This document shows positions 3,974 to 44,437 of a stretch of 64,000 nucleotides of DNA, piece by piece. Origin of the DNA: Promethearchaeota archaeon (GTDB taxonomy: Archaea; Asgardarchaeota; Lokiarchaeia; Sigyniarchaeales; SOKP01); contig JAHPZA010000004.1 of assembly GCA_019058445.1 (NCBI GenBank), forward strand, positions 1 through 64,000, written 5' to 3'. The notes under the pieces are model-generated. The model made no database searches and had not been told where the DNA came from. It worked only from the letters and a program-made list of their open reading frames with translations. Position numbers and translations under genes: made by a program. Positions within the stretch are counted from its first letter, which is position 1. Each line of letters starts with the position of its first letter.

Positions 3974-4080
3974 TACGTTGCATATAATGATAAAATAATA
4001 CGTTTTTTTTTATTTAAAAATTTTACGTTTTATTCAATCTAAATTTATTACGTGGCAAATTCCCAATAAAATGAAACGTT
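3974..4080. promoter_or_regulatory. Array of five phased ACGT boxes in a divergent promoter
   Basis: ACGT begins at 3975, 4000, 4025, 4050 and 4076 (spacing 25, 25, 25, 26); the first four are TACGT. Confidence 0.65.
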
Positions 4081-4111
4081 TATAATTCAAAAATCATTTA
4101 ATAATAATATT

Positions 4112-4972: not shown

Positions 4973-5188
4973 CTACTCTCTCCATTCTTCTTCATCAAAA
5001 ACGACAGCTTTGTACTGGATTTTATCATCAGAGACATCTACAATAGTGAAGGGTGCGCCACAATCCTCACATTCAAGAACATCGTCTTTTTCTGCATCAT
5101 CAATAGGAAATTGATAATAACAACTGGAGCATTCCAAAATAAATTTGCCCTCTTCATTTTTTGTAGCCTCATATATTTTTTCAGCCAT
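4973..5188 (-). CDS. lysW: LysW-type amino-group carrier protein
   Basis: Small acidic zinc ribbon (CSSC...CEDC) ending EEEWRE (canonical EDWGE), downstream of lysX-lysZ. Start placed at the ATG at 5188 after GGTGA SD; ORF track starts at 5200. Confidence 0.85.
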   Translation of the reverse strand: MAEKIYEATKNEEGKFILECSSCYYQFPIDDAEKDDVLECEDCGAPFTIVDVSDDKIQYKAVVFDEEEWRE

Positions 5189-5259
5189 AAATATCACCAT
5201 AATTAATATATAATAATAATATTAAGTTACATTTTTTATTATTCTTTCTATTCTTATTT

Positions 5260-6069
5260 CTAATCAGTTATAATAGTGCAATTCTCATTATTAAGAGCTT
5301 TAATGATTGGATTCTCTCGTAGACCAGATGCGATTATTACTTGTTTAATTCCTTCACTGGCAGATTTTAGAGCTGTAATCACTTTAGTTTTCATACCTCC
5401 CGATACATTTTCAAGGATTGAATCAGCTCTTGAGCTATTTATGTGAGTAATAAGGTTCTTATGTTTATCTAAAACGCCATCAACATCAGTTAAAAGTATT
5501 AATTTATCGGCTTTGGTCGCTACTGCAATTGCATCAGACATTCTATCACTATCACCACCAACAATCTCATTATCTATACTGATAGCAATGGAGGCTACAA
5601 CGGGAATATAATCTTTCTCCCAGAGTGTTTCAATTAATTGAACATTTACTTTAGAAGGTTTTCCTGTGTAGTTATCCTTGAGTTTTTTCTTTCCTTCCAA
5701 AATAACCATCGCTTTTTTAAACCTCTCGGCAATGATCAGCCCTCCGTCAACTCCCGAAATACCAACAGCAGGAAGTCCCTTAGTAACCATTTCTTTTACA
5801 ATACGTTTATTATTTAGACCAGCAACAACCATGATATAAATATCTCTGGTTTCTTCATCTACATAACGAGCTTTATATCCTTTAGTAGAATGGGTAAAAA
5901 TCTGGGGTATACCCATTTTCTCTGCTATAGCTGTAATTACATCAGCTCCAGCATGACATAAAACTATCTTTTTCTTTTCAGCATGTAGGTTTAATAAGTC
6001 TGAGATTACAAAATCTAGGTTTTCCTTTAGTAAATCTCCACCAATCTTAATAACAATTTTTTCTGACAT
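5260..6069 (-). CDS. lysZ: [LysW]-aminoadipate/glutamate kinase (amino-acid kinase family)
   Basis: IVIKIGG, LILLTDVDGVL and SGGMKTKV motifs; next to lysW and lysX. Confidence 0.85.
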   Translation of the reverse strand: MSEKIVIKIGGDLLKENLDFVISDLLNLHAEKKKIVLCHAGADVITAIAEKMGIPQIFTHSTKGYKARYVDEETRDIYIMVVAGLNNKRIVKEMVTKGLPAVGISGVDGGLIIAERFKKAMVILEGKKKLKDNYTGKPSKVNVQLIETLWEKDYIPVVASIAISIDNEIVGGDSDRMSDAIAVATKADKLILLTDVDGVLDKHKNLITHINSSRADSILENVSGGMKTKVITALKSASEGIKQVIIASGLRENPIIKALNNENCTIITD

Positions 6070-12463: not shown

Positions 12464-13183
12464 ATGTGTTTTGAAGAAATAAGCGTATGTCCTGAATGTG
12501 GTACTCCAGTTGGTTATAAAGGGGTAGTAAACAAATTATATAATTTTTTATGTTCCAAATGTGGATGGGAAGGATCTAATTTTAAGACAAAGAAAATTAA
12601 AACTGATTTTAGACATCGGGCAAAACCGTGTCATGACTGTGGAATAGTTGAAGGAGAACTACATAAGGAAAATTGTGATATGGAGGTTTGCCCTTTTTGT
12701 GGGCTTCAACTGTTAACATGTGGTTGTAAGTACACAGAAATCGGCTACGATGCTGATGATCTCCCTGAAGACATCTTTAACGATGGTTTAGATGATGTAG
12801 ATTATAGTAAATGGAAAAAGAGACTACAAGAAAAAGGAAGGATTCCTTACATATTTTTTCCTAATATTTGTGATAAATGTGGAGTTTTATGGCCAATATA
12901 TATAAATATACCTCCTAAAGATCTTATGAAATATACTTTTATTGACGGAAAGCGGAAGTTATTTTGTAGAGAATGTTATAAAGAAATAAAGAGTATGATC
13001 GATAAGGGGAAAAAAGATAATATAAAATTGCCAGAGATGTGTTATTATTGTGGATTCATGGGTAATGATTTAAAAAAGATAAATGATGAGAATTGGACTA
13101 ATAAAATTGAGCCTAGGATGAGAGATAAAACCCTCTGCTCAAAGTGTTATATTAGAATTGACTCACTCTTAAATGATAATTAA
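12464..13183 (+). CDS. Cys-rich multi-zinc-finger protein
   Basis: Eight CxxC pairs (CPEC, CSKC, CHDC, CPFC, CDKC, CREC, CYYC, CSKC) plus additional Cys/His. Confidence 0.75.
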   Translation: MCFEEISVCPECGTPVGYKGVVNKLYNFLCSKCGWEGSNFKTKKIKTDFRHRAKPCHDCGIVEGELHKENCDMEVCPFCGLQLLTCGCKYTEIGYDADDLPEDIFNDGLDDVDYSKWKKRLQEKGRIPYIFFPNICDKCGVLWPIYINIPPKDLMKYTFIDGKRKLFCRECYKEIKSMIDKGKKDNIKLPEMCYYCGFMGNDLKKINDENWTNKIEPRMRDKTLCSKCYIRIDSLLNDN

Positions 13184-28068: not shown

Positions 28069-29505
28069 GTGAAAAAGTGCAAAAAAATGCTTAGACAAGT
28101 TTGTGTGATTAAAAAGGATGATATACTTTATGAAAGATTATACGCTAATGCATTAAAAAAAGGGGAAATCGAAGATCTTCGCTTCAAGATCAAGAAAGAT
28201 GCCATTAAAGAAAAGGAAAATATACTTGGGTTTTTTGATTATTACAAATACCGCGTTTCGTACATCGTTGATCTTGAATTAGATATCATCTACATCTTTA
28301 TAACAGGATTGATGGATGATTATTTTAGTTTGATTAAACCTGAAATGGATAGTTTTAAGAATGAATTCTTTGAGCTTTTCGAAACAGAGCTCAATAAGGA
28401 TCAATTGAGTCCAGAAAAAATTGAAATTCTAAATAGCTATATCGATTCGATGCATAAAAATATTAAACCAAAAATTGCTGTAGTTGGATACTCTGGAGTC
28501 GGAAAGACTACAACCAAAAATTTGATTAGAATGGATGAAATACCTTCTCATCATATTCCAACAATTTCGGGAGATGTAGCTATGGCTAAGATCGGAGAAT
28601 TAGAATTTCAAATTTTTGATTTCGCAGGTCAAGAACAATTTAGCTATTTATGGAAAGGTTTTATAAAAGGAAGCAATGCAGTACTAGTAGTTACAGATTC
28701 TACTCCCCTAAATGTAGAAAAAAGCAGATTCTTTATTGATTTGAGAAATGATGAGGCTCCCTATGCCCGCATTGCTATTTTAGGGAACAAACAAGATCTT
28801 GAAAATGCCATGGACGTTGAAAGTATTGAAAATATCTTAGGGATTAAAACATATCCAATGATAGCAAATGAACCTGAGAATCGAGAAAAAATGATCCAGA
28901 TTATTGCTAATATTTTAGACATGAATATCGAAACATCTCCATTATTAGAGGGTTTAGTTAAAGAGGATAAATTTACATCAGAACCAGTAAAAGAAATGAT
29001 TAAAGGAGTGAGTTTAGATGAGAGGAAAGACTATATCAGAGAGATAAATATAGATCAAAAATTATCTAATGAAGTATCTGATGATATAAAGGGTGTAAAA
29101 GTTGAAAATATTTTGAGAAATCATCTTAAAATGATAAATTATACAGTCAAATCAATAAATAATAATGAGGAATTAACGTTCGAAGAGTTTTACAACTACT
29201 TTCAAGATTATACGAGAAATGCACTTGCATGTAGAAATATTGCGCTAAAACAATTTTTAGAAACACAATTCTCCCGCCTGCAAAAATCGATTGAAGAAGA
29301 TGAATTTATCGCCACAAAATTGAAAGATGATGTAGATGCCATAATTAATGCTCTCCTTTGTGCATATCTTACAAAATCTAATCCTCAAAAATATCCGATC
29401 TTTGAAAATATATTAAAAGATTTTACATTTAAAGGATTTGACGCACAGACCATAAAAGATATTCACGCTTATTACTTAAGAGTTATTAATAAATTTGGAG
29501 TCTAA
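28069..29505 (+). CDS. Arf/Ras-like small GTPase with N-terminal longin-like and C-terminal helical extensions
   Basis: G1 GYSGVGKT, G2 IPTI, G3 DFAGQE, G4 NKQD; probable start ATG 28087. Confidence 0.88.
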   Translation: MKKCKKMLRQVCVIKKDDILYERLYANALKKGEIEDLRFKIKKDAIKEKENILGFFDYYKYRVSYIVDLELDIIYIFITGLMDDYFSLIKPEMDSFKNEFFELFETELNKDQLSPEKIEILNSYIDSMHKNIKPKIAVVGYSGVGKTTTKNLIRMDEIPSHHIPTISGDVAMAKIGELEFQIFDFAGQEQFSYLWKGFIKGSNAVLVVTDSTPLNVEKSRFFIDLRNDEAPYARIAILGNKQDLENAMDVESIENILGIKTYPMIANEPENREKMIQIIANILDMNIETSPLLEGLVKEDKFTSEPVKEMIKGVSLDERKDYIREINIDQKLSNEVSDDIKGVKVENILRNHLKMINYTVKSINNNEELTFEEFYNYFQDYTRNALACRNIALKQFLETQFSRLQKSIEEDEFIATKLKDDVDAIINALLCAYLTKSNPQKYPIFENILKDFTFKGFDAQTIKDIHAYYLRVINKFGV

Positions 29506-31862: not shown

Positions 31863-33011
31863 ATGTATTTAAGTGGATTAGTAAAGAAAGAGTTTGGCAG
31901 GATACAATCAGATAAACGGACATTAGTGTTAATTTTTGTCATTCCTATTATCTTGATTGTGATCTTTGGGCTTACTTCAGGAGGGGGTCCTACTGCATAT
32001 TTTGATACCGCAATCATAACCCGAGATAAAGAACCGTGCGATTGTTATAATTCTACGGATGGTTATGATGATATTTTTATAGACATTGTAGAGGATGATT
32101 GCGAAGCATGGGGTCTCTTTGAAGATTTTGAAAGCGAAGATGATGATGATTTTGATAAAATTTTTGATAAATGTGTCGAATTATTGAGAGATGAAATTAT
32201 TGATGTTTTTATAATATTACCTGATGATTTTTCGGAAACAATTACAAATGATACTAACACAGAAATCATTTATTATATTGATGGTTCCGATCAACAGGCA
32301 AAGGATGCGGTTGAAGTAGCATTGCAAGAACCAATAGGTAAATTTAGATTAGAAATAGATAAAACTACCAATTTTACTACAATGTCTCCCTATTTAGAAT
32401 ATGAAGTACCTTTCTGGGAATCTCAGGTGTTAAATTATGCATTTGCCTTGATTGCATCAATGCTTATCTTAGGATTATTAATGAATCTCACATCCTTGTC
32501 AATTGTTTCAGAAAAACCACTTCCTCGTATGTTGTTAACTCCAACAGCAAAGGACGAGATTATTTTAAGTAAATTAATTGCCAATACAATTATCATGATT
32601 CTACAAGTAACTGAAATTTTCGTAATGTCGGCCATTTTTGGATTATATTGTCTTGGTTCCCTCTTTGAACTTTATTTGGTATTATTAATGACAGGTTTTT
32701 GTGGAATATGTATGGGTTTATTTATTTCAGCAATTTCTAAAACTGAACAAGTTGCTAATCAACTCTATATGATGTTCTTTATAACTGTTATTATGTTTTC
32801 GGGCGCATTCATCAAAATTGATGCCTTGCCACTCGCAATGCAGATCATTATCAATTCACTTCCGTTAAGCCATGCTATCCCTCTTATTGTGAACATTACA
32901 ATGAAAGGACTTCCAATTGATTACGCTCACCTAGGAAGTTTAGCTTTAATATCAACAACCTTTGCCGGTATGGCTTATATCGCATTTAGATTAAAGAAAG
33001 TAGAGGTGTAA
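31863..33011 (+). CDS. ABC-2 type permease (YbhR/YbhS-like)
   Basis: KKEF...DKRTL, TM1, acidic extracytoplasmic domain, five further TM, RMLLTP, FSGAF...PLSHA. Confidence 0.9.
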   Translation: MYLSGLVKKEFGRIQSDKRTLVLIFVIPIILIVIFGLTSGGGPTAYFDTAIITRDKEPCDCYNSTDGYDDIFIDIVEDDCEAWGLFEDFESEDDDDFDKIFDKCVELLRDEIIDVFIILPDDFSETITNDTNTEIIYYIDGSDQQAKDAVEVALQEPIGKFRLEIDKTTNFTTMSPYLEYEVPFWESQVLNYAFALIASMLILGLLMNLTSLSIVSEKPLPRMLLTPTAKDEIILSKLIANTIIMILQVTEIFVMSAIFGLYCLGSLFELYLVLLMTGFCGICMGLFISAISKTEQVANQLYMMFFITVIMFSGAFIKIDALPLAMQIIINSLPLSHAIPLIVNITMKGLPIDYAHLGSLALISTTFAGMAYIAFRLKKVEV

Positions 33012-33018
33012 ATAGAGA

Positions 33019-34248
33019 TTGGCAAAATCTAAGACATCCGACAATTGGAGCAGTGGAACTTTTTTTAACAGGCTAAGATATAGTTTATGGAGAATTGTAC
33101 GACAGGTAAAAAAGGAATTCCAGCTCTTGAAAATAGATAAGATGAATTTAGTAATTGCGCTATTGATGCCTCCAGGAATAATTATGCTCTTTGCTTTTAT
33201 GTCCACTAGTGCTTCAGTCACCATACCTGTAAAAGTTAGTGTAGTTAGTTATGATTCCAATACCTTTGTAAATCAAAATAACTACTCGATAACAACAAAA
33301 TGGGATAATTATACCGAAATGTATCTGGATGCGGTAAAAGAATCAGAATTACTAGAACTAATTGAATTTTATGACGCAAGTGAAGATGAAAACGAATATG
33401 CTATGGAAACAGCACGAAATGAGATGCGAGATGGGAATATTGAATGCATCATCGTCATTCCCGTCGAATTTTCGGAGTTATTAACGACTGGCTATCCGGG
33501 GATCATAGAACTTATCCCGGATGCTTCTGATGCCGCTTCAATCCAAGATAAACTTAATGCTGTTCAAGATTCGATTAAAATCTTTGTAGAAGAAAATGAT
33601 CTTGATCCCGAATACGTGCTACAAGAATACGAGGAATTCTCAGTTCCATCCAAGTATAATTTTAGATACAACTATAATATGACCGTCTTATTACCGTTTA
33701 TGACTTTTGGAATTTCCTTTGTGTTAACTATATTAGTAGTCGTCCAGGAAAAACCTATCGCAAGACTTTTACTCACGCCAGTACAAAAAGCTGAGATTTT
33801 ACTTTCAAAATATATTGTTTATTCCATCGTATTAGCACTGCAAGTTTTTTTAGTCCTCACGGTTGCGATAGCTAACGGACTTTATGTTGCTGGAAATGTT
33901 ATTGATTTATTTCTCGGTCTATATATGTTAGGGTTTGCTGGAGTGAGTTTAGGGATGTTTGTCAGTACCGTAAGTAATACTAAAACCGAGGCAAATCAAC
34001 TCTTTTTTGCTCTTTTTATTGTTATTATATTATTAAGCGGTATGTTTGTTCCTATAGATGCAATGCCCGATTATTTACAAAATATTGCATATATTCTTCC
34101 ATTATCTCATGGAGCTCCGATTATCAAAGGAATTCTCTCTAAAGGTAAATCTTTTATTGGATTTGACTTTTTTTGGCTACTTGGTATAAGCTCAGTGCTC
34201 ATTATTCTATCATTCTTGGTAATTAATAGAAAACGATATGAGGTGTAA
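33019..34248 (+). CDS. ABC-2 type permease (second paralog)
   Basis: KKEFQLL, RLLLTPV, LSGMFVPIDAMP, PLSH. Confidence 0.9.
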   Translation: MAKSKTSDNWSSGTFFNRLRYSLWRIVRQVKKEFQLLKIDKMNLVIALLMPPGIIMLFAFMSTSASVTIPVKVSVVSYDSNTFVNQNNYSITTKWDNYTEMYLDAVKESELLELIEFYDASEDENEYAMETARNEMRDGNIECIIVIPVEFSELLTTGYPGIIELIPDASDAASIQDKLNAVQDSIKIFVEENDLDPEYVLQEYEEFSVPSKYNFRYNYNMTVLLPFMTFGISFVLTILVVVQEKPIARLLLTPVQKAEILLSKYIVYSIVLALQVFLVLTVAIANGLYVAGNVIDLFLGLYMLGFAGVSLGMFVSTVSNTKTEANQLFFALFIVIILLSGMFVPIDAMPDYLQNIAYILPLSHGAPIIKGILSKGKSFIGFDFFWLLGISSVLIILSFLVINRKRYEV

Positions 34249-35290
34249 CTTGATAAGTACTACAGATGTAAAAGAAATCGTTGTTAATGTAGAAAATTTA
34301 GAAGTAAGTTTCGGAGAAAAAAAAATCATACATAAAGTTTCTTTTAATGTAAACCGAGGTGAGATCATCGGATTTTTTGGAATCTCAGGAGCGGGAAAAA
34401 CTACAATAATTCGCGTTTTAACATGTCAGATAAGTCAAAAAAATTGGACGGGATATGTAAAGGTTACGAATCTTAACCCAGGAAGTAAAAAAAATCACGC
34501 AAAAATACTGAGTAATATCGGATATGTCCCACAATTAGAAGAACTCAATCTCTATTATGACTTAACTCCTCTTAAAAATGTGGAGATATTTGCTTCTTGT
34601 TATAACATGAAAAAAAAAGAAGCTTTAGCTATCGCGAAAGAATTATTTTCAATTTTAGATATCCCAGAAGACACTTGGAATAAACCTTTAAAAAAAATGA
34701 GTGGAGGAGAAAAAAAGAGAGTTTCTATGGCTATTGGCTTAATCCACAAGCCGGACATTCTTTTTTTAGACGAACCTACCACAGGAGTTGATGCTGCTAA
34801 GCGCTATGATGTGCTTTCATATTTAAAAAAGCTTAACCGTAGATTAGGTACCACGATGTTCTTAATAACGCATGATATGGAAGCAGCCTTGATTGTAGAT
34901 CGAGCCGCCATTTTAAGAGACGGAAAACTTCTAGAATTTGACTCTAATTCTAATTTGATTACATCATTGCCAAGTAAAGGTTTAGTAGCGCGATTTTCAA
35001 TAGAAAATTTAAATGAGGAAAAAATAAACATTATCAAACAATTTCCAAATGTTAGTAATATTAAAACTATACGAGTTGGCAATGAGACGTTTGAAGTACT
35101 TATGGACGATTTTGAAAAAAACCTCTCAAAATTAATACAGTTCATGATGGAGAAAGGTTTAAAACTCAATGCAATGAGCCGGGATGTTGCTGCGTTTAGG
35201 AGATACTTTCAACTTAGAATTCAAGAAGAAGAAGAGAAAGAGCGCCGGATAAGAATGCAACAAGAAACAAGTGAAGAGGTGCAGTTTTAA
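34238..35290 (+). CDS. ABC ATPase (DrrA/CcmA-like) with C-terminal regulatory domain
   Basis: GISGAGKT, MSGGEKKR, FLDEPTTG, ITH; probable start TTG 34250. Confidence 0.93.
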   Translation: MRCNLISTTDVKEIVVNVENLEVSFGEKKIIHKVSFNVNRGEIIGFFGISGAGKTTIIRVLTCQISQKNWTGYVKVTNLNPGSKKNHAKILSNIGYVPQLEELNLYYDLTPLKNVEIFASCYNMKKKEALAIAKELFSILDIPEDTWNKPLKKMSGGEKKRVSMAIGLIHKPDILFLDEPTTGVDAAKRYDVLSYLKKLNRRLGTTMFLITHDMEAALIVDRAAILRDGKLLEFDSNSNLITSLPSKGLVARFSIENLNEEKINIIKQFPNVSNIKTIRVGNETFEVLMDDFEKNLSKLIQFMMEKGLKLNAMSRDVAAFRRYFQLRIQEEEEKERRIRMQQETSEEVQF

Positions 35291-38200
35291 CGGAATCCAA
35301 AACTAAGCGCAAAATTAGAGTATTATTAACATTTATAGCTTTTTTCGGTGCCCAATTACTTCTAATTGGGCTTATTAATTACCCATGGATAACCTATTAC
35401 GATGAAAATGAAGTAAAAGATCTTAAAGATAATATGGTGGATTTTGTAAATAGCCATCAAAATCCAGATTCTGATCTTTTTATTGAGCCCACAATAGAGT
35501 CAACCTATAGGGCAATTGATTCACTTAATTTTTCCCATCCTGTTAGTTCCTCTACAAATATAATAAATCCTAGATATAACGACCATCTAAGTGATGATAT
35601 GAGAGATTTCTTTTTTTATTACTTATTTGAGAAACAAAATGATAATGGGTCCTTTTCAGATATTTATGGATTAGGAAACATGTACTCTACGTATCAAGTC
35701 GTTGAAACTATTTACAAATTAGATAGCTCTTTTATGATTTTACGAGATGAAGAATATGAATTTAATAAGATTAGTATGCTTCTTCAGTACTTGGGTAATT
35801 CCTTGGCAGAGAATGGGTACGGATTTAAGTTAAATGAATACTCTCCTATACCTGATATACTGTCAACTTATTGCGCTATAATTTTAGCAAATCGATTCAA
35901 TGCAGAGTCTCTTCTTAAAAATAAAAACATTACTAGGTATGTGAATTCCTCTATTATTGACATTTCGCCAGAATTGACATATTATAGGATCTTGTCTCAT
36001 TTAGAATTAGGGTTGACAATTAACATAACGCAAAAAATAGCTATTCTAGTTTATTTTGCAAGTCTCTATAATAGCCAAGATGGGGGTTTTTCTATAATTG
36101 CTGGAGGTGAGTCAGATGTCCAATCAACCTATTTTGCAATTTCCTCGTTAAATGCAATAAATAGGACGGTCTCTAACCAAAACAAATCACGATATTTCAT
36201 ATTGAATTGTTCAAGTTCAGATGGAGGTTTTGGGTATAGGCCAGACACTGTGAATGCAACGTATAACTCAGATTTTAAATCGGGATGGGCAGCCATGAAA
36301 GCTATTGACATTCTTGAAAAAAATGCCACTGTGAATAACCTCAATAATAATCTATATCGTAAGAATTATTATAATTGGTTATATGCGCATCAAGCAGAGA
36401 ATGGGTTGTTTGGGGAGATTTCACTGCAAGCAAATTATTGGGGTGTATTATCAAATTTTCAAGCTGATCCCGAAAATTTAGCTGATAAGGTGGATATAGA
36501 TGATATCTGGGATTATGTTGAAGACTGTTATGATAGTAGTGAAGGAGGGTTCGGATATAAAGCTGATGAGGAAGCAAGCTTATTTTCGACTTATAGTGCT
36601 CTTAATATTTATGAAATGTTCTATAATTATGATGAATTCGAGGGTGAGCTACCTAATACCAATAAAACTATAGAATATTTAGTTGATAGGCAAAATCAAG
36701 ATGGGGGATTTAATTTAGGTCTTGATTTATATCAAATTACTGCCTTTTTTGGACCATTAAGTGATATTTTTTTAAGTTTATTAAAAACTAATGTTTCTAC
36801 AGTAGAAAGTACATATTGGGCTCTCTCCTCCTTAGATATTTTAGGTGCAATAGATAAAGTATATGAGAAAGATTTAATGCATTGGATGTACTCCTGTCAG
36901 AACGCTGATGGGGGTTTTTCTATAATTTTAGGATTTCACAGTGATACTATATCAACCTATTTTGGATTAGCAGTTTTTAATTTATTAAATACTAAACCGA
37001 TATCCGAAATAGGGCCTATTGAGTTTTTAAAGAATGCTCAAAATGACGAGGGAAGTTTCGATCCTATGCCAGCTCTTTCATTAATATTTGATCTTCCCAC
37101 ATCATTTTTATTAACATATTTCGCAGCCATGGGACTTTACGAATTTGAATATCAACCTGAAGATGTGGAAGAATTAATTGATTGGTATGAAGATTGTTAT
37201 AGTTCAAATACAGGTGGAATGGGAGATAATCCGGGATTCGGAGGTGACTTACGAAATACTCCTTATGGGATAATCCTTATAGAAGAACTTCAATATGATC
37301 AAGCTTTTAACCCTAGACCTTGGACAGAATTAATCACAGTGATAATTTTGACAGAAATTCTACTACTTTTGTTATATGGAATTATAAACGCCATTATGAT
37401 TTTAGATGTAACGATTTCAAAAAAGATAAAGACGAAATTAGGGATTGGGGAAAAGTTTAATATCTCCTATTTAAAAAAGTCGGCTGCGATTTATTGTGAA
37501 AATTTAAATATATTTGCAGGAGGAAAATTAATTGTAGATTCTGTTTCAATGAGATTAGAACATAGTGAAATTTTAGGAGTATTAGGAGAAAGTGGAGCGG
37601 GTAAGTCGACTTTTGTAAAAGCTTTGCTAGGAATGCGTAAGTTCACTGGAATTAATCAAGTGTATGGCATGGATGTAAAAAAGTACTCAAAAAAAATGAG
37701 ACCTATCTATGGATATGTCCCCCAACAACTAATGCTGTATAATAATTTTACTGTTTTACAAAATATTTTCTACTTTGGGAAGAGATATGATTTATCTGAA
37801 AAAGAAATCATAAGTAGGACTAAAAGATTACTAAGATCGTTGGAAATTGAAGACAAAATGTATGAAAAAGTTAAGAACCTTTCAGGAGGGCAGAAACGAC
37901 GAGTAAGCATAGCATTGGCATTAATTCATAATCCTGTTATTCTTTGGATGGATGAGCCGACATCAGGCTTAGATCCTGTGGTACGAGAAAATCTCTGGAT
38001 TGCATTAACCAAAATAAATGAGCAATTTAATACTACATTAATTGTAATTACACATTATCCCGAAGAATCACGTTTCTGTCATCGTGTTGCGATATTTGGG
38101 AGGCAAAAAGGTATGATAGACTATGGGCGTCCAAGGGATTTGCTTACCCAATTACCCGGGCGTGGTCGGAAAATCGAATTATATTTCAATGAGATAAAAG

Positions 38201-38421
38201 AGGAGGCTATTAAGAGATTAGAATCTATTGATGGTGTAGAAACTGTATTAGAGAGGAAAGCAGGGACTGATTTCTTATTGTTTACTGATTTGGACTTGAA
38301 CTCTCTCTTTGAAAAAATTAAACAAGAGTTTCCAAAGTCAATTCCGCAGATGATTCAATCAGATTGTCAAATGGAAGATTTATTCAGAATTTTAGCGTTA
38401 AAGGTGCCTGTAATTGAATAA
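35287..38421 (+). CDS. Fusion: signal anchor + prenyltransferase/squalene-cyclase-repeat barrel + TM + ABC ATPase
   Basis: Repeated QxxDGGF / STY motifs; TM LITVIILTEILLLLLYGII; intact GESGAGKS, LSGGQ, WMDEPTSG, ITH. ORF track starts at 35434, but the frame is open back to 35275 and encodes a signal-anchor-like TESKTKRKIRVLLTFIAFFGAQLLLIGLI. Confidence 0.85.
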   Translation, partial: LTESKTKRKIRVLLTFIAFFGAQLLLIGLINYPWITYYDENEVKDLKDNMVDFVNSHQNPDSDLFIEPTIESTYRAIDSLNFSHPVSSSTNIINPRYNDHLSDDMRDFFFYYLFEKQNDNGSFSDIYGLGNMYSTYQVVETIYKLDSSFMILRDEEYEFNKISMLLQYLGNSLAENGYGFKLNEYSPIPDILSTYCAIILANRFNAESLLKNKNITRYVNSSIIDISPELTYYRILSHLELGLTINITQKIAILVYFASLYNSQDGGFSIIAGGESDVQSTYFAISSLNAINRTVSNQNKSRYFILNCSSSDGGFGYRPDTVNATYNSDFKSGWAAMKAIDILEKNATVNNLNNNLYRKNYYNWLYAHQAENGLFGEISLQANYWGVLSNFQADPENLADKVDIDDIWDYVEDCYDSSEGGFGYKADEEASLFSTYSALNIYEMFYNYDEFEGELPNTNKTIEYLVDRQNQDGGFNLGLDLYQITAFFGPLSDIFLSLLKTNVSTVESTYWALSSLDILGAIDKVYEKDLMHWMYSCQNADGGFSIILGFHSDTISTYFGLAVFNLLNTKPISEIGPIEFLKNAQNDEGSFDPMPALSLIFDLPTSFLLTYFAAMGLYEFEYQPEDVEELIDWYEDCYSSNTGGMGDNPGFGGDLRNTPYGIILIEELQYDQAFNPRPWTELITVIILTEILLLLLYGIINAIMILDVTISKKIKTKLGIGEKFNISYLKKSAAIYCENLNIFAGGKLIVDSVSMRLEHSEILGVLGESGAGKSTFVKALLGMRKFTGINQVYGMDVKKYSKKMRPIYGYVPQQLMLYNNFTVLQNIFYFGKRYDLSEKEIISRTKRLLRSLEIEDKMYEKVKNLSGGQKRRVSIALALIHNPVILWMDEPTSGLDPVVRENLWIALTKINEQFNTTLIVITHYPEESRFCHRVAIFGRQKGMIDYGRPRDLLTQLPGRGRKIELYFNEIKEEAIKRLESIDGVETVLERKAGTDFLLFTDLDLNSLFEKIKQEFPKSIPQMIQSDCQMEDLFRILALKVPVIE

Positions 38422-40273
38422 ACCTGCATTAAATAAACTTTTTAGAGAAGAAGATGTAAGAGATATCGAATTATCTCTCCTTAAATCTAAGATAAGCAAA
38501 GCAATTAGATTTTCTGAACGATATTGGATGATTTATAAGCAAAAAACATTTGGAATAGCTACAATTATTGATTTAAGTTATAAAAAATCTTATATTGAGG
38601 TATTATTCTCACCTACGATAGATAAAACACAAACTCAAACCTCATTGGTGCAAATCTTTACTCCTGGTAAGACTACATTTAACTTTAATGAGATTCTTAT
38701 CGAACCAGATACTGATGAGGATGGGCTTGTAAGCCCCCAAAAAATAATTCAAAGACTAAATAGATTAATTAAAAAGGAAGTAAATTACCATCTTACCATT
38801 TTAAATTATGAGCTTGAATTATTAAATGAACAATTTGAAAATTATCCAATAGAAGGGAATCCGTACTTTAGAAAAATTATTGTATATTTTCCAAATTATG
38901 TCGTGGAATTAAGAATTAATATAGAAAATTATCCTGAAGTCCCAAGTTTATCTGAAAAAGATCAATTAACTATTAGAAGATTTATTGAACCAATAGCAGA
39001 AAAAATAAGGGTAAAATTATTAGAAAGGTATGGAATATCCGCATTTGAAAGATATGGAGAAGAAGTTCATATTTATGATGATAAATTAGAGATTTTTATA
39101 GAAAAATCTAAAATGCCATTTATAGTGAAATTTAAAAGAGGATTTGAGAAAAGAGTTAGAGAACTATTTAAATTAAAACCTAAAGATGTAATTGAAGATT
39201 ATAAAGACTTAAAATATATTATAAAAGAAAGGGATTTTAACAAAATAGAGCTGATTAAAAACTGGAAAGTTGAGAATGCGCCCCATATTGTCGAGTTAAT
39301 TGAATCAATTTTGGAGATAATGAAAAATTCTCAACATCTTATCCTTAAAAATGTATCACTATTGGATAAAATTCATAATATATCATTTAAAGTTCATAGA
39401 GGACAATCAATTGGCATTTATTATAAGTTAAAAGAACCAAACCATATATTAGCTGAAAATCCTATCATTGAATTATTTCATACAATTGAGGGTAGAAGTG
39501 CCGATTATTCAGGAGAAATTTCTGTTTTTGGTACTAAATACATCCCCAATGGCTATAATAAGAGTGAAGGGATATTGATTACAACCGGTGAAATAGATTC
39601 GAAAATACGAAATATGAAAATTAAAAAAGCAATTCTTTACAATTTATATCTCATAGGAAAGAGAAAAAGCAAAAAAACGTTAATAAACAAGGCACTGGAG
39701 ATAACTGGATTATTATATAGAAAAAACGAAAAAGTGGCTAATTTAACTATATTAGAACAAATTTTATTCTCAATTTCTAGAGCTCTTTTAAGAAGGCAGA
39801 GTATTATAATGGTTTCCATCCCTCTTAGTGAAATAGGACCCTTAGAAAGTGAACAATTTAATCGTTATGTAGAAAACATTAAGCAAGAATTTCATGTTGT
39901 TCTAATAATTCACGGTCCAAAAAGTATTGTTTCAAATTGCGACAAGATTATTACAGTTAAAGATAAACAGGCAGAAATAGGTACAATTAAGCATTATATT
40001 TCAAAAATACCTCAAGCTGGGGAAATTATTACAATTGAATTAGACAAGCCTGATGAAGTTGCTCTTGAAAATATGCTTAAAATTCAAACTGGTATATTTA
40101 TTGAAGAAAGAAAAAATGAAAGATATAAGATATATTGTATAGATGAGAACCCTAATAAAATACTTGTTAAATTATTCGAAACTATTGGAGATCATATGTA
40201 CAATTTTAAAAGACATAAGGCGTCATTAGAAGAATATTTAGAATTTATGGAAATTAAAGAAAAAATGGGATAA
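38414..40273 (+). CDS. Fusion: UEV/E2/RWD-like domain + degenerate ABC ATPase
   Basis: LRINIENYPEVP and LIKNWKVENAPHIVELIESI (UBC-fold-like); IHNISFKVHRGQSIGI without Walker A, LTILEQ..ISRALL in place of LSGGQ, CDKII. Confidence 0.65.
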   Translation: MNKPALNKLFREEDVRDIELSLLKSKISKAIRFSERYWMIYKQKTFGIATIIDLSYKKSYIEVLFSPTIDKTQTQTSLVQIFTPGKTTFNFNEILIEPDTDEDGLVSPQKIIQRLNRLIKKEVNYHLTILNYELELLNEQFENYPIEGNPYFRKIIVYFPNYVVELRINIENYPEVPSLSEKDQLTIRRFIEPIAEKIRVKLLERYGISAFERYGEEVHIYDDKLEIFIEKSKMPFIVKFKRGFEKRVRELFKLKPKDVIEDYKDLKYIIKERDFNKIELIKNWKVENAPHIVELIESILEIMKNSQHLILKNVSLLDKIHNISFKVHRGQSIGIYYKLKEPNHILAENPIIELFHTIEGRSADYSGEISVFGTKYIPNGYNKSEGILITTGEIDSKIRNMKIKKAILYNLYLIGKRKSKKTLINKALEITGLLYRKNEKVANLTILEQILFSISRALLRRQSIIMVSIPLSEIGPLESEQFNRYVENIKQEFHVVLIIHGPKSIVSNCDKIITVKDKQAEIGTIKHYISKIPQAGEIITIELDKPDEVALENMLKIQTGIFIEERKNERYKIYCIDENPNKILVKLFETIGDHMYNFKRHKASLEEYLEFMEIKEKMG

Positions 40274-40312
40274 AATTAATAATCAGAGAAAATAATTAAA
40301 AAAGGTGTTACA

Positions 40313-41125
40313 ATGATAAAAAGACTGTATATTATGAGATATAATGGAACTCTCTTATATTCAAAACATCTTACTGAGGGAGAACGTTTTGATGATAATA
40401 TTTTAATTGGATTTTTTGCTTCATTAGCAAATTTTAGTAGAGAAGCACTAGAAAGTGAAATTCAATATATTGATCTCGGGCATGATAATAAATTAGTGTT
40501 GTTTCCTCATGCAAGTGAAAAATTACTCGCCACAGCTATCGTAAGTTCTATTGATGATAATGAACTTATCATGAAAATTTTGAGAGATATTTTGCAAGAC
40601 TTCATTGGAGCTTTTGCACCAGATTATAATCCAGATGAAATTAATGAAGAAGAGATGGAAAGCATCATTGAATTAAATGTGAGCGGAAAGATAAGTTATC
40701 CATTAATTAAAAGACTTATATTTTCATGGCTTTTGTTAATTCCGCTCTGCATTTTTTTAAATTTCTTAAACATTACTTCGGGAGATTATATCTTTCAAAA
40801 TTTATATCTTGATAAAGATATTTACACACAAGAGGAGATTTATACTGTGGTATTGCCTACAATGATCCGGATTTCTCTAATTGTTTTATTAATTGTATTT
40901 ATATTACCTAATCTAATTTCTGGCTATTTAGTGTTAGATGCAAAGTTTGCCTATTTAAATTCGGTAATATATATTGTCTTAATCATGGTTATATACTTCT
41001 TTACAATAGAATCTCTATTCGCCTATGTTATTCTCGCCTATCTACCGTTGGTTTTCTTAATCTCAATTGGCTTTGCTTACATAGGATTTCGATATGCTAA
41101 AAAGAGAAAAATTATTAGAAATTAG
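40313..41125 (+). CDS. Longin-like domain + 4 TM membrane protein
   Basis: MIKRLYIMRYNGTLLYSKH...ILIGFFASLANFSRE...IQYIDL longin-type pattern; four C-terminal hydrophobic helices; basic tail. Confidence 0.7.
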   Translation: MIKRLYIMRYNGTLLYSKHLTEGERFDDNILIGFFASLANFSREALESEIQYIDLGHDNKLVLFPHASEKLLATAIVSSIDDNELIMKILRDILQDFIGAFAPDYNPDEINEEEMESIIELNVSGKISYPLIKRLIFSWLLLIPLCIFLNFLNITSGDYIFQNLYLDKDIYTQEEIYTVVLPTMIRISLIVLLIVFILPNLISGYLVLDAKFAYLNSVIYIVLIMVIYFFTIESLFAYVILAYLPLVFLISIGFAYIGFRYAKKRKIIRN

Positions 41126-42943: not shown

Positions 42944-44437
42944 TTGATTAAAATTTCATACAAATTACCAGATGAAAAAGATTTAGAGGCCATGATTGGC
43001 ATTGTAGGTAAAAAGTATGCCAGCAATAACAAGGCAATCACTGCTTCTTACCTCGCAAAGTCAGTCATGGGGCTGGAAAGCCAAATTCCAGACATCGTAA
43101 TCCGACCGAAATACGTAGAAGAGATTCGTAAAATCTTAATATATTGCTCTGCTGAGAAAATACCTGTTAGTCCTGTTTCGGCAGGATTATCCGGTGGATT
43201 TGCTTGCCCTACTATTAGACCTGGTGGTGTGCTCCTCGATTTGGGGAGAATGGATCGTATCATCGAAATTGACGAAGAAAATCGATATGCTATTATAGAA
43301 CCGGGTGTAACCAATGGTACGCTTTGGGCTTACATGCATAAGAATCATCCTGATTGGGCACCTCCAATTGCTGATGGCGCCCCTCCGGCTGCTACTGTAA
43401 TGGGAGATGCTATAGATAGAGGTTTTTCCTTATATACTTCTAGTGTAGGACCTCAAGGGGATAACTTTATGTGTGGGGAAGTTGTTTTTCCAAATGGTGA
43501 TGTCGTAAGAACAGGATCTTGGGCGCTTCCATTTGCAAAACCATTCTATAAGTATGGGCTTGGTCCAGACATGTGGTCATACCTTATGGGTAGTCAAGGA
43601 ACTATGGGAGTAATAACCAAGGCAGCTGTCAAAATATATCCTCATCCTAAATACAAAACTGTTATAGTATGGGGTATGTCTAATCCTTATGATATGCAAG
43701 ATTTAACACTAGAAGTAGGAAAACAAGAATTTGGGGTTTCTAACCATACCGTTATGGTCCAAGGAGGCAATTATCCACTCGTTATGGCACGCTGGCCAAA
43801 AGATAAAATTCCTCATAATTATGAATTTTTTAAAGAAATAGGTGTAGCAAAGTGGTGGATGAACTGGGAAACATGGGCTCAGACGCAAGAAGAATTGGAT
43901 TATTGTATTAAGAGAATCAACTCTATAGCAAAAGATTTCAAACAAAATCGTGCTAAAGACCCTGATGCTATAAAACCCCAGGAGCTTCATCCTAAACAAA
44001 TCGCAAGCAGAATGAAGAAACCTAATAAGATTGCTATTCCATATTCATTCTGGGAAGCTGGGTTCTTATTCATAACATGGTACACTCCGTGGAACGAATG
44101 TGCCGAATTCGCAGAAATGTACAACGCAGAAATGGAAAAGAGAGGTTTCCCTCCTGTGATGTGGATTGCCAGCATTGAGCGTTGCAGACAAGCAATCTGT
44201 ATGCCAATAATCTGTTTTGACAGTACTAAGGATGAGGATTTTGAAAAGGTCCAAGATTTGAATGCGGTGACTACTGAATATGGTCTAAAAAGAGGATGGC
44301 TTAACTATAGACCAGATCCATACATCCACATACAAGCTTACTATCAAGCAGGTATGTACTGGAAGTATTTACGGGCCTTTAAGAAAATGGTCGATCCTAA
44401 TATGATAATGCATCCCGGCAGATTAGCTCTGCCGTAA
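42944..44437 (+). CDS. FAD-binding oxidoreductase, VAO/GlcD family
   Basis: PDIVIRP, LDLGRMDRI, IEPGVT, RTGS, GSQGTMGVITKA, DPNMIMHPG. Confidence 0.9.
   Translation: MIKISYKLPDEKDLEAMIGIVGKKYASNNKAITASYLAKSVMGLESQIPDIVIRPKYVEEIRKILIYCSAEKIPVSPVSAGLSGGFACPTIRPGGVLLDLGRMDRIIEIDEENRYAIIEPGVTNGTLWAYMHKNHPDWAPPIADGAPPAATVMGDAIDRGFSLYTSSVGPQGDNFMCGEVVFPNGDVVRTGSWALPFAKPFYKYGLGPDMWSYLMGSQGTMGVITKAAVKIYPHPKYKTVIVWGMSNPYDMQDLTLEVGKQEFGVSNHTVMVQGGNYPLVMARWPKDKIPHNYEFFKEIGVAKWWMNWETWAQTQEELDYCIKRINSIAKDFKQNRAKDPDAIKPQELHPKQIASRMKKPNKIAIPYSFWEAGFLFITWYTPWNECAEFAEMYNAEMEKRGFPPVMWIASIERCRQAICMPIICFDSTKDEDFEKVQDLNAVTTEYGLKRGWLNYRPDPYIHIQAYYQAGMYWKYLRAFKKMVDPNMIMHPGRLALP

Follow-up and report, generated by a model that had tools for sequence, protein, structure and literature searches.

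Do the six co-oriented genes at positions 31863-41125 of the window (the whole 64,000-nt stretch analyzed, positions 1 to 64,000 of contig JAHPZA010000004.1 from a Promethearchaeota archaeon; G+C content approximately 30%) encode one membrane machine, and what might each part contribute to it? The answer that we favor, and hold tentatively, is that they specify a single multi-subunit ATP-binding cassette (ABC) machine of the ABC-2 kind (type V, DrrAB/YbhFSR/ABCA-like), which belongs to Loki-type Asgard archaea and is passed on as a unit. All six open reading frames (ORFs) were on the + strand at the coordinates given in a preliminary description of this DNA, with spacing of -11 to +39 nt (overlap or gap) except for the interval before gene 4; the tight packing reported there was confirmed from the ORF coordinates (Table 1). 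Public homologs of the operon genes were labeled Promethearchaeota or Lokiarchaeota.

Fourteen genomes, from at least 10 genera of the same family, have all six genes collinear, and the cluster, or genes 3-4-5(-6), recurred in four further families of the class (f2, f4, f5, and f7), as expected if the genes are co-conserved in other Asgard genomes. The gene 3-gene 4 linkage was kept in distant loci L071 and L072, and L073, the most distant locus, had genes 4, 5, and 6 side by side. Gene 5 was strongly matched in 78 genomes and gene 6 in 78, with both present in approximately 76 of the 135 family genomes; the few mismatches between the two were on short or cut contigs. Both genes were missing from approximately 55 of the 135, several of them 97-100% complete. 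In five genomes of 97-100% completeness without genes 5 and 6, the gene 4 ectodomain was also missing and the gene 2 paralogs were only 25-28% identical. Losses of the operon occurred within several genera. Because genes 5 and 6 co-occur and the five genomes just named lack the gene 4 ectodomain too, gain and loss affect the entire operon. An accidental adjacency, with genes 4-6 unrelated to the transporter, is effectively refuted by synteny and is extremely improbable: several families and at least 10 genera share the gene order, the genes overlap at their start and stop codons, and the set was all-or-none in its occurrence.

In more distant families of the order, a simpler operon was found: besides a plain nucleotide-binding domain (NBD), it has a single permease or two and another active NBD that is extended at its N-terminus by a soluble stretch. 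Because these simpler operons pair a plain NBD with an N-terminally extended active NBD, the NBD heterodimer looks ancestral, which favors one machine. The second NBDs of the distant families (L027:8360-10138, L028:8266-10032, and L029:11863-13791) carried a soluble N-terminal domain of approximately 270 amino acids (aa) and no toroid. In one genus, two opposite-strand genes, encoding a multi-helix membrane protein of 239-245 aa and a protein of 152-156 aa, were inserted between genes 4 and 5 (L014:7686-9068, L022:7750-9073). Where orthologous operons had gaps of 1-2 kb, as some did, the genes inserted there matched no family.

Genes 1 and 2 matched the Pfam family ABC2_membrane_3 above cut-off (5.4e-29 and 1.1e-28, respectively), and their profiles aligned with a probability of 100% (hhalign). 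In both proteins a long nonhydrophobic stretch separated the first and second transmembrane (TM) helices, TM1 and TM2, by hydropathy (in gene 1, TM1 at residues 20-38 and the next helix at 189). The two ABC-2 permeases with extracytoplasmic domains of the preliminary description were thus recovered, as was its one ordinary NBD: gene 3 matched Pfam ABC_tran (7.9e-25) and NCBIfam drrA (1.3e-54), and all of its catalytic motifs (Walker A, Q-loop, signature, Walker B, and H-loop), read in the translation, were intact. Known ABC-2/type V exporters include DrrAB, YbhFSR, and NodIJ, with eukaryotic relatives in ABCA/ABCG. The operon resembles them in its permeases, which match the ABC2_membrane_3, DrrB, and RbbA permease models; in its NBDs, which have a DrrA-C-like domain at the C-terminus and match the models for DrrA, RbbA, and NodI; and in the large outer domain between TM1 and TM2. 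Unlike these exporters, it has three NBD-like proteins for two permeases, one of them membrane-tethered to an outer toroid of approximately 600 aa and one catalytically dead and fused to tandem domains resembling ubiquitin-conjugating enzymes (E2), and it has an additional longin-4TM subunit. The transporter is a variant of the known ABC-2 kind.

Gene 4 had been described as an intact NBD joined by one TM helix to a prenyltransferase-repeat domain of approximately 600 aa. The domains and that helix stood; a second, N-terminal anchor was found upstream of the first ATG. The frame opens at the TGA of 35272, and the 159 bases that separate this codon from the ATG at 35434 (35275-35433, 53 sense codons) contained no ATG, GTG, or TTG. 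Translated in frame, they gave a tail rich in K/R with a hydrophobic helix behind it. Orthologs have N-termini that align with this upstream peptide, and in three of them a canonical start precedes it. In seven other orthologs the frame also opened just past a stop codon, and GGTGA, GAGGTG, or GGAGGT was followed 4-9 nt later by ATA, ATT, or ACG. The probable start of gene 4 is the ACG at 35290, and the pattern suggests that near-cognate initiation is habitual in gene 4 orthologs of several genera; perhaps it sets subunit stoichiometry. Counted from the ACG, TM1 spans residues 11-29, and the corrected product of approximately 1043 aa comprises the tail, TM1, the domain of approximately 600 aa, TM2, and the ATPase. 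The repeat domain is predicted to face the outside of the cell, because the ATPase must be cytoplasmic and TM2 separates the two. In the ATPase, GESGAGKST, Q764, LSGG.KRR, DEPTSGLD, and H874 were invariant in 17 orthologs.

The ectodomain matched Pfam Prenyltrans (PF00432; 3.2e-41) in three stretches and, weakly, SQHop_cyclase_N/C. Its match to RabGGTase beta (E 2e-18) was at the level of the repeat only, one query segment aligning to two different parts of the enzyme. The approximately 10 repeats probably form two alpha/alpha toroids, as in squalene-hopene cyclase. Among the 17 orthologs, 54 ectodomain positions were invariant, chiefly the Gly, Gln, Asp, and aromatic residues that belong to the repeat motif; no invariant His was among them, and the Asp/Cys/His zinc site is therefore absent from the toroid. 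In the aligned repeat, His was replaced by Ser. A class II cyclase site was considered and rejected: the motif DIDD at approximately residue 354 was confined to the closest relatives, and no DxDD was conserved in the 17 orthologs. N-glycosylation sequons in the ectodomain numbered 12 for 7.5 expected, a difference that does not discriminate. The ectodomain thus has the same type of repeat as protein prenyltransferase beta (RabGGTase beta) and squalene-hopene cyclase and differs from both in having no invariant zinc-site His and no conserved DxDD, in its predicted extracellular location, and in its size, approximately twice that of one toroid. Judged by these residues, it is not an enzyme of the prenyltransferase or cyclase families that it resembles. 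The fusion of toroid, TM helix, and NBD had 190 database matches and was present in all 120 matches listed, among which every source-named one was an Asgard-labeled metagenome-assembled genome with an automatic name only. No description of an NBD-tethered outer toroid was found in the literature searched, partly by keyword.

In a single machine, genes 1 and 2 would form a heterodimeric membrane pore, which would be powered by the two active ATPases, gene 3 and the NBD of gene 4, paired as a heterodimer. The toroid would be anchored by TM1 and TM2 beside the outer domains of the permeases, with exactly one per machine because the gene 4 ATPase is tethered to it through TM2, and would serve as a noncatalytic acceptor or binding module for exported cargo. 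Genes 5 and 6 would be regulatory or scaffolding subunits at the cytoplasmic face. MlaFEDB and LptB2FGC combine a core ABC transporter with a small NBD regulator (MlaB) and an anchored extracytoplasmic acceptor (MlaD, LptC). The proposed machine resembles them in having accessory regulatory subunits (comparable to MlaB on MlaF or to the TM helix of LptC) and a membrane-anchored extracytoplasmic acceptor (as MlaD or LptC). It has no sequence or fold relation to them, a covalent fusion joins its outer module to an NBD, and its accessory folds are E2-like and longin.

The C-terminal part of gene 5 (residues approximately 305-619) matched NBDs of the PDB by sequence (E 2.7e-4), and fold matches of residues 305-619 in the ESM-Atlas were to an NBD with a DrrA-C-like domain (TM-score 0.7 by target). 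Walker A, signature, and Walker B were all replaced in 50 aligned homologs. Orthologs from families f2, f5, and f7 were also without Walker A, which was missing in five families in all; the f5 proteins retain LSEGE and part of Walker B. Since f5 keeps the signature motif, the gene 5 NBD was probably paired ancestrally with an active ATPase, completing one working ATP site. The preliminary description had proposed three interchangeable NBD subunits. Because the third has no ATP-binding motifs, with Walker A missing in every family examined, the three are not interchangeable.

The N-terminus of gene 5 was more difficult to assign. In AlphaFold2 (AF2) models, module 1 had the order alpha-beta-beta-beta-(alpha)-beta and module 2 the order alpha-beta-beta-beta-YPxxP-beta-alpha. 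Module 2 had the invariant residues Y173-P174..P177 and W284..PPH and included a genus-specific insert of approximately 90 aa. The whole protein had no Pfam match, and the N-termini of the 50 homologs likewise had no significant one. Nothing significant was returned for the N-terminus by the PDB profile search or by the atlas feature searches, and hhalign against E2 and RWD alignments gave P 0.02-0.2. The gene 5 locus was not among the matches of genome-wide RWD and UQ_con scans, and when the complete gene 5 model was compared by fold with viral and atlas libraries, only NBDs were matched, filling every list. Below threshold, Pfam RWD matched an f5 ortholog (E 0.0077), and BRE/BRCC45, a tandem protein of the ubiquitin E2 variant (UEV) type, was a recurring PDB match (E 0.17-0.34).

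When 400 genomes from the phylum were scanned with profiles, the gene 5 N-terminal region was found to be related to another Asgard protein family. The member of this family in the genome of the window (L031 1288-2970, minus strand; G000 contig 10) carries UQ_con at residues 34-127 and RWD at residues 392-488, both passing Pfam cut-offs, and ends in a RING/IBR-like zinc finger; it is probably a component of the ubiquitin system. By hhalign, gene 5 residues 104-300 matched the middle domain of this triple-E2-like protein (97.3%, E 1.7e-11), the middle domain matched the UQ_con domain of its own protein (96.9%, E 1.5e-10), and the UQ_con domain matched bona fide Asgard E2s (95%, E 3.1e-8). Module 1 of gene 5 matched module 1 of f5 orthologs, in which LFPxDYPKKP is kept (95.8%, E 6.7e-9), and the latter matched the UQ_con domain (96.8%, E 2.2e-10). 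The aligned sequences, not each of them scanned residue by residue, showed no E2 HPN...Cys beyond the YPxxP turn, and no Cys was among the invariant or nearly invariant N-terminal columns of the gene 5 alignment. The AF2 order and the invariant YP..P turn fit an alpha-beta4-alpha (UBC-type) topology and, like the sub-threshold RWD and BRE matches, point the same way as the profile chain. We read the N-terminus as two tandem noncatalytic UBC-fold domains outside the Vps23/TSG101 UEV family, whose profile (PF05743) had no match in gene 5 or its 50 homologs at E up to 10. Of the degenerate NBD fused to a UBC/UEV-like region that had been described, the dead NBD stood, and the E2-like nature of the region was supported by the chained profiles and the sub-threshold BRE and RWD matches. 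The putative tandem noncatalytic UBC-fold domains of gene 5, with their YPxxP turn, resemble those of BRE/BRCC45 and other tandem UEV/RWD proteins and differ in being fused to a pseudo-ATPase; the match to BRE/BRCC45 (E as above) is not significant.

Members of the triple-E2-like family, with relatives in L032-L044, were approximately 550-630 aa long and consisted of three UBC-fold domains in tandem (UQ_con, the middle domain, and RWD) with the RING/IBR-like finger; their first two domains were homologous to the gene 5 N-terminus. A 288-aa protein of the same genome (L070:964-1830, G000 contig 6) carried the same UBC-like module, with a BLAST match to the triple-domain protein (E 5e-10), and had no Pfam family.

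Gene 6 had been described as a longin-like protein with four TM helices, and both features were recovered. Residues 1-128, a soluble domain, had the order beta-beta-alpha-beta-beta-beta-alpha and longin-fold matches. The AF2 model placed four hydrophobic helices at residues 131-166, 173-207, 210-231, and 235-263, and the alignment of the membrane part contained a conserved LPNLISGY with N200 and G204 invariant. No SNARE heptad motif was present in gene 6, where only a 12-residue helix (112-123) precedes TM1. Unlike the longin proteins VAMP7, Sec22, AP sigma/mu, TRAPP, and Mon1-Ccz1, gene 6 had no SNARE motif and no Pfam match, and it had four TM helices instead of a tail anchor. Prediction of a gene 5-gene 6 complex gave a score of 0.00, which, having no controls, counts neither for nor against binding. 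A split ABC-2 permease made of gene 4 (two TM helices) and gene 6 (four) was also considered and rejected, hhalign of the gene 6 TM region against genes 1 and 2 having returned nothing.

The main rival of a single machine is that there are two: genes 1-3 would be an ordinary ABC-2 exporter, and genes 4-6 a nontransporting mechanotransducer like FtsEX or MacB, in which the active/dead pair of gene 4 and gene 5 uses ATP to move the gene 4 TM helices, packed on the four of gene 6, thereby switching the conformation or binding of the toroid. Genes 1-3 already supply two permeases and an NBD; the outer domain of gene 4 lies between TM1 and TM2, as in MacB/FtsX and in ABC-2 permeases; the signature motif retained by the dead NBD of f5 is what asymmetric NBD pairs show; and the adjacency of genes 4-5-6 persists in L073. 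Against this, the gene 3-gene 4 linkage also persists in L071 and L072, the dead NBD of the window's genus has lost the signature too (leaving a gene 4/gene 5 ATP site that is crippled at best), the gene 6 TM region has no similarity to ABC-2 permeases, and the six genes are gained and lost together. We regard two machines as unlikely, and nothing tested separates the single machine from a separate gene 4/5/6 mechanotransducer. Several further points weigh against the single machine. The association of its subunits is inferred, and two permeases need two NBDs only, so that genes 1-3 could be a complete exporter and genes 4-6 a second assembly. Family membership is the sole guide to substrate and transport direction, the E2-like assignment of gene 5 comes from transitive profile matches, with no significant match in Pfam or the PDB, and the related genomes in the counts given are not independent samples.

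The preliminary description had gone further and proposed a lipid or isoprenoid exporter, possibly plugged into signaling by ubiquitin, the endosomal sorting (ESCRT) complexes, or small GTPases through the E2-variant and longin modules. Consistent with it are the homology linking the gene 5 N-terminus with domains one and two of the UQ_con/RWD/RING-IBR-like Asgard protein and the NBD profiles, which matched ABCA lipid exporters best in the PDB (with an alignment that included two full-length rows). Longin domains commonly serve as GTPase platforms, and the Arf-type GTPase that had been noticed approximately 2.4 kb upstream was verified: the 478-aa protein encoded at 28069-29505 has an Arf-family domain at residues 125-265. 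Synteny comparison showed, however, that this gene adjoins the operon within the same genus only, and no ubiquitin or ESCRT gene is part of the conserved cluster or travels with it. Also against this reading, no E2 HPN...Cys is seen in the aligned gene 5 region, and the toroid, predicted to face outward, has no prenyltransferase or cyclase catalytic residues. Similarity of the NBDs to ABCA is a family trait of ABC-2 systems and not an indicator of substrate. Because the toroid is external, has no zinc site or invariant His, and does not conserve DIDD, the isoprenoid substrate is a guess from the name of the fold only. We consider this exporter improbable, and the functional reading of the preliminary description is mostly unsupported.

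Three salt-lake metatranscriptome runs (two studies) each had one RNA contig that covered the orthologous operon and bridged gene 3 into gene 4; the orthologous operon is therefore represented in RNA libraries. Some stretches of L082 had no RNA contig over them, which carries no weight either way. Gene 3 looked split in four orthologous loci because a single codon boundary, the one separating LDEPTT (Walker B) from GVDA (D-loop), held an insert of 31-34 nt. The insert is absent from the window at 34760-34830. A pattern scan found it in 7 of the 135 family genomes and 5 of 13 genera, once per genome, and a reversed control pattern had 0 matches in the same scan. Its flanks form a bulge-helix-bulge (BHB) in which the outer helix is ACC/GGU and the central one has 4 bp, with bulges of 3 nt and a hairpin inside (partly by hand folding). 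On seven sequences, 92% of cells paired and seven pairs had changed on both sides; the covariation score was reached by 0 of 500 shuffles, and sliding the partners cut pairing to 21-48%. The three RNA contigs skip exactly 32 nt (L082 1515-1546), restoring ACC ACA GGT, whereas a DNA contig from another study reads through the 32-nt insert unbroken; the spliced RNA and unspliced DNA contigs come from different samples, and an intron-less allele in the RNA samples would also fit. The insert is a tRNA-type (BHB) intron, supported by covariation and the spliced RNA contigs. In the literature searched, BHB-type splicing of the mRNA of a protein gene was documented for cbf5 only (PMC2738675).

Upstream of the operon lies a possible seventh gene, P0008. 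Its homolog was directly upstream of gene 1 in four of the 14 loci (L013, L017, L019, and L026) and at the opposite end of the operon in L023, with a weak match approximately 1 kb off in L025. No Pfam or NCBIfam family matched P0008, and its atlas neighbors were unnamed Promethearchaeota clusters; the family is specific to Promethearchaeota. In 8 of the 14 compared loci, a FAD_binding_4 oxidase gene (42944-44437 of the window) was no more than a few kb away from the operon.

Table 1. Positions of the operon genes, their domains, and associated features (window coordinates, except for the insert sites in orthologous loci)
Feature	Position	Strand	Description	Basis
Gene 1	31863..33011	+	ABC-2 permease, 382 aa; extracytoplasmic domain between TM1 and TM2	Pfam, hydropathy
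Gene 2	33019..34248	+	ABC-2 permease, 409 aa, paralog of gene 1	Pfam, hhalign
Gene 3	34238..35290	+	Plain DrrA-type ABC ATPase, 350 aa; C-terminal accessory domain	Pfam, NCBIfam
Gene 4	35434-38421 (from first ATG)	+	Toroid-repeat region, TM, and ABC ATPase	
Gene 4, Shine-Dalgarno-like GAGGTG	35276..35281	+	8 nt ahead of ACG 35290	
Gene 4, 5' extension	35290..35433	+	K/R-rich tail and signal-anchor TM1; no ATG/GTG/TTG	
Gene 4, ectodomain	35434..37323	+	Approximately 10 prenyltransferase/terpene-cyclase-type repeats	Pfam Prenyltrans
Gene 4, TM2	37330..37386	+	Residues 633-651	Hydropathy
Gene 4, ABC ATPase and C-terminal domain	37486..38421	+	Cytoplasmic (predicted)	Pfam ABC_tran 1.7e-25
Gene 5	38414-40273	+	619 aa; two UBC/RWD-like modules and pseudo-ATPase	
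Gene 5, module 1	38435..38734	+	Residues ~8-107; degenerate UBC/RWD-like	AF2, hhalign
Gene 5, module 2	38723..39313	+	Residues ~104-300; UBC/RWD-like	AF2, hhalign
Gene 5, pseudo-ATPase	39326..40273	+	ABC NBD fold and DrrA-C-like domain; Walker A, signature, Walker B replaced	
Gene 6	40313-41125	+	Longin-fold domain and four membrane helices	
Gene 6, longin-fold domain	40313..40696	+	Residues 1-128	
Gene 6, membrane domain	40697..41125	+	Four helices and basic tail	AF2, hydropathy
P0008	31168..31701	+	177-aa zinc-ribbon protein, 161 nt upstream of operon	Homologs in loci compared
Gene 3 insert sites	L082:1515-1546 (G011); L016 ~5786-5818; L017 ~5183-5213; L022 ~4056-4088; L025 ~12700-12760 (minus strand); L077; L079; L081			

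On a bolder reading, the pseudo-ATPase, with its two E2-variant domains, and the polytopic longin protein would regulate a surface-directed exporter whose toroid receives lipid-linked or envelope cargo; we regard this as quite unlikely. If true, folds that eukaryotes use for the control of membrane traffic would have been wired to a membrane transporter before eukaryogenesis. Asgard archaea have been mined for folds that appear later in the trafficking and ubiquitin machinery of eukaryotes, and most such signature domains are without a known partner. Here, tandem E2-variant-like domains and a longin domain are tied, by synteny and all-or-none inheritance, to a defined and expressed membrane machine, which gives them a biochemical handle.

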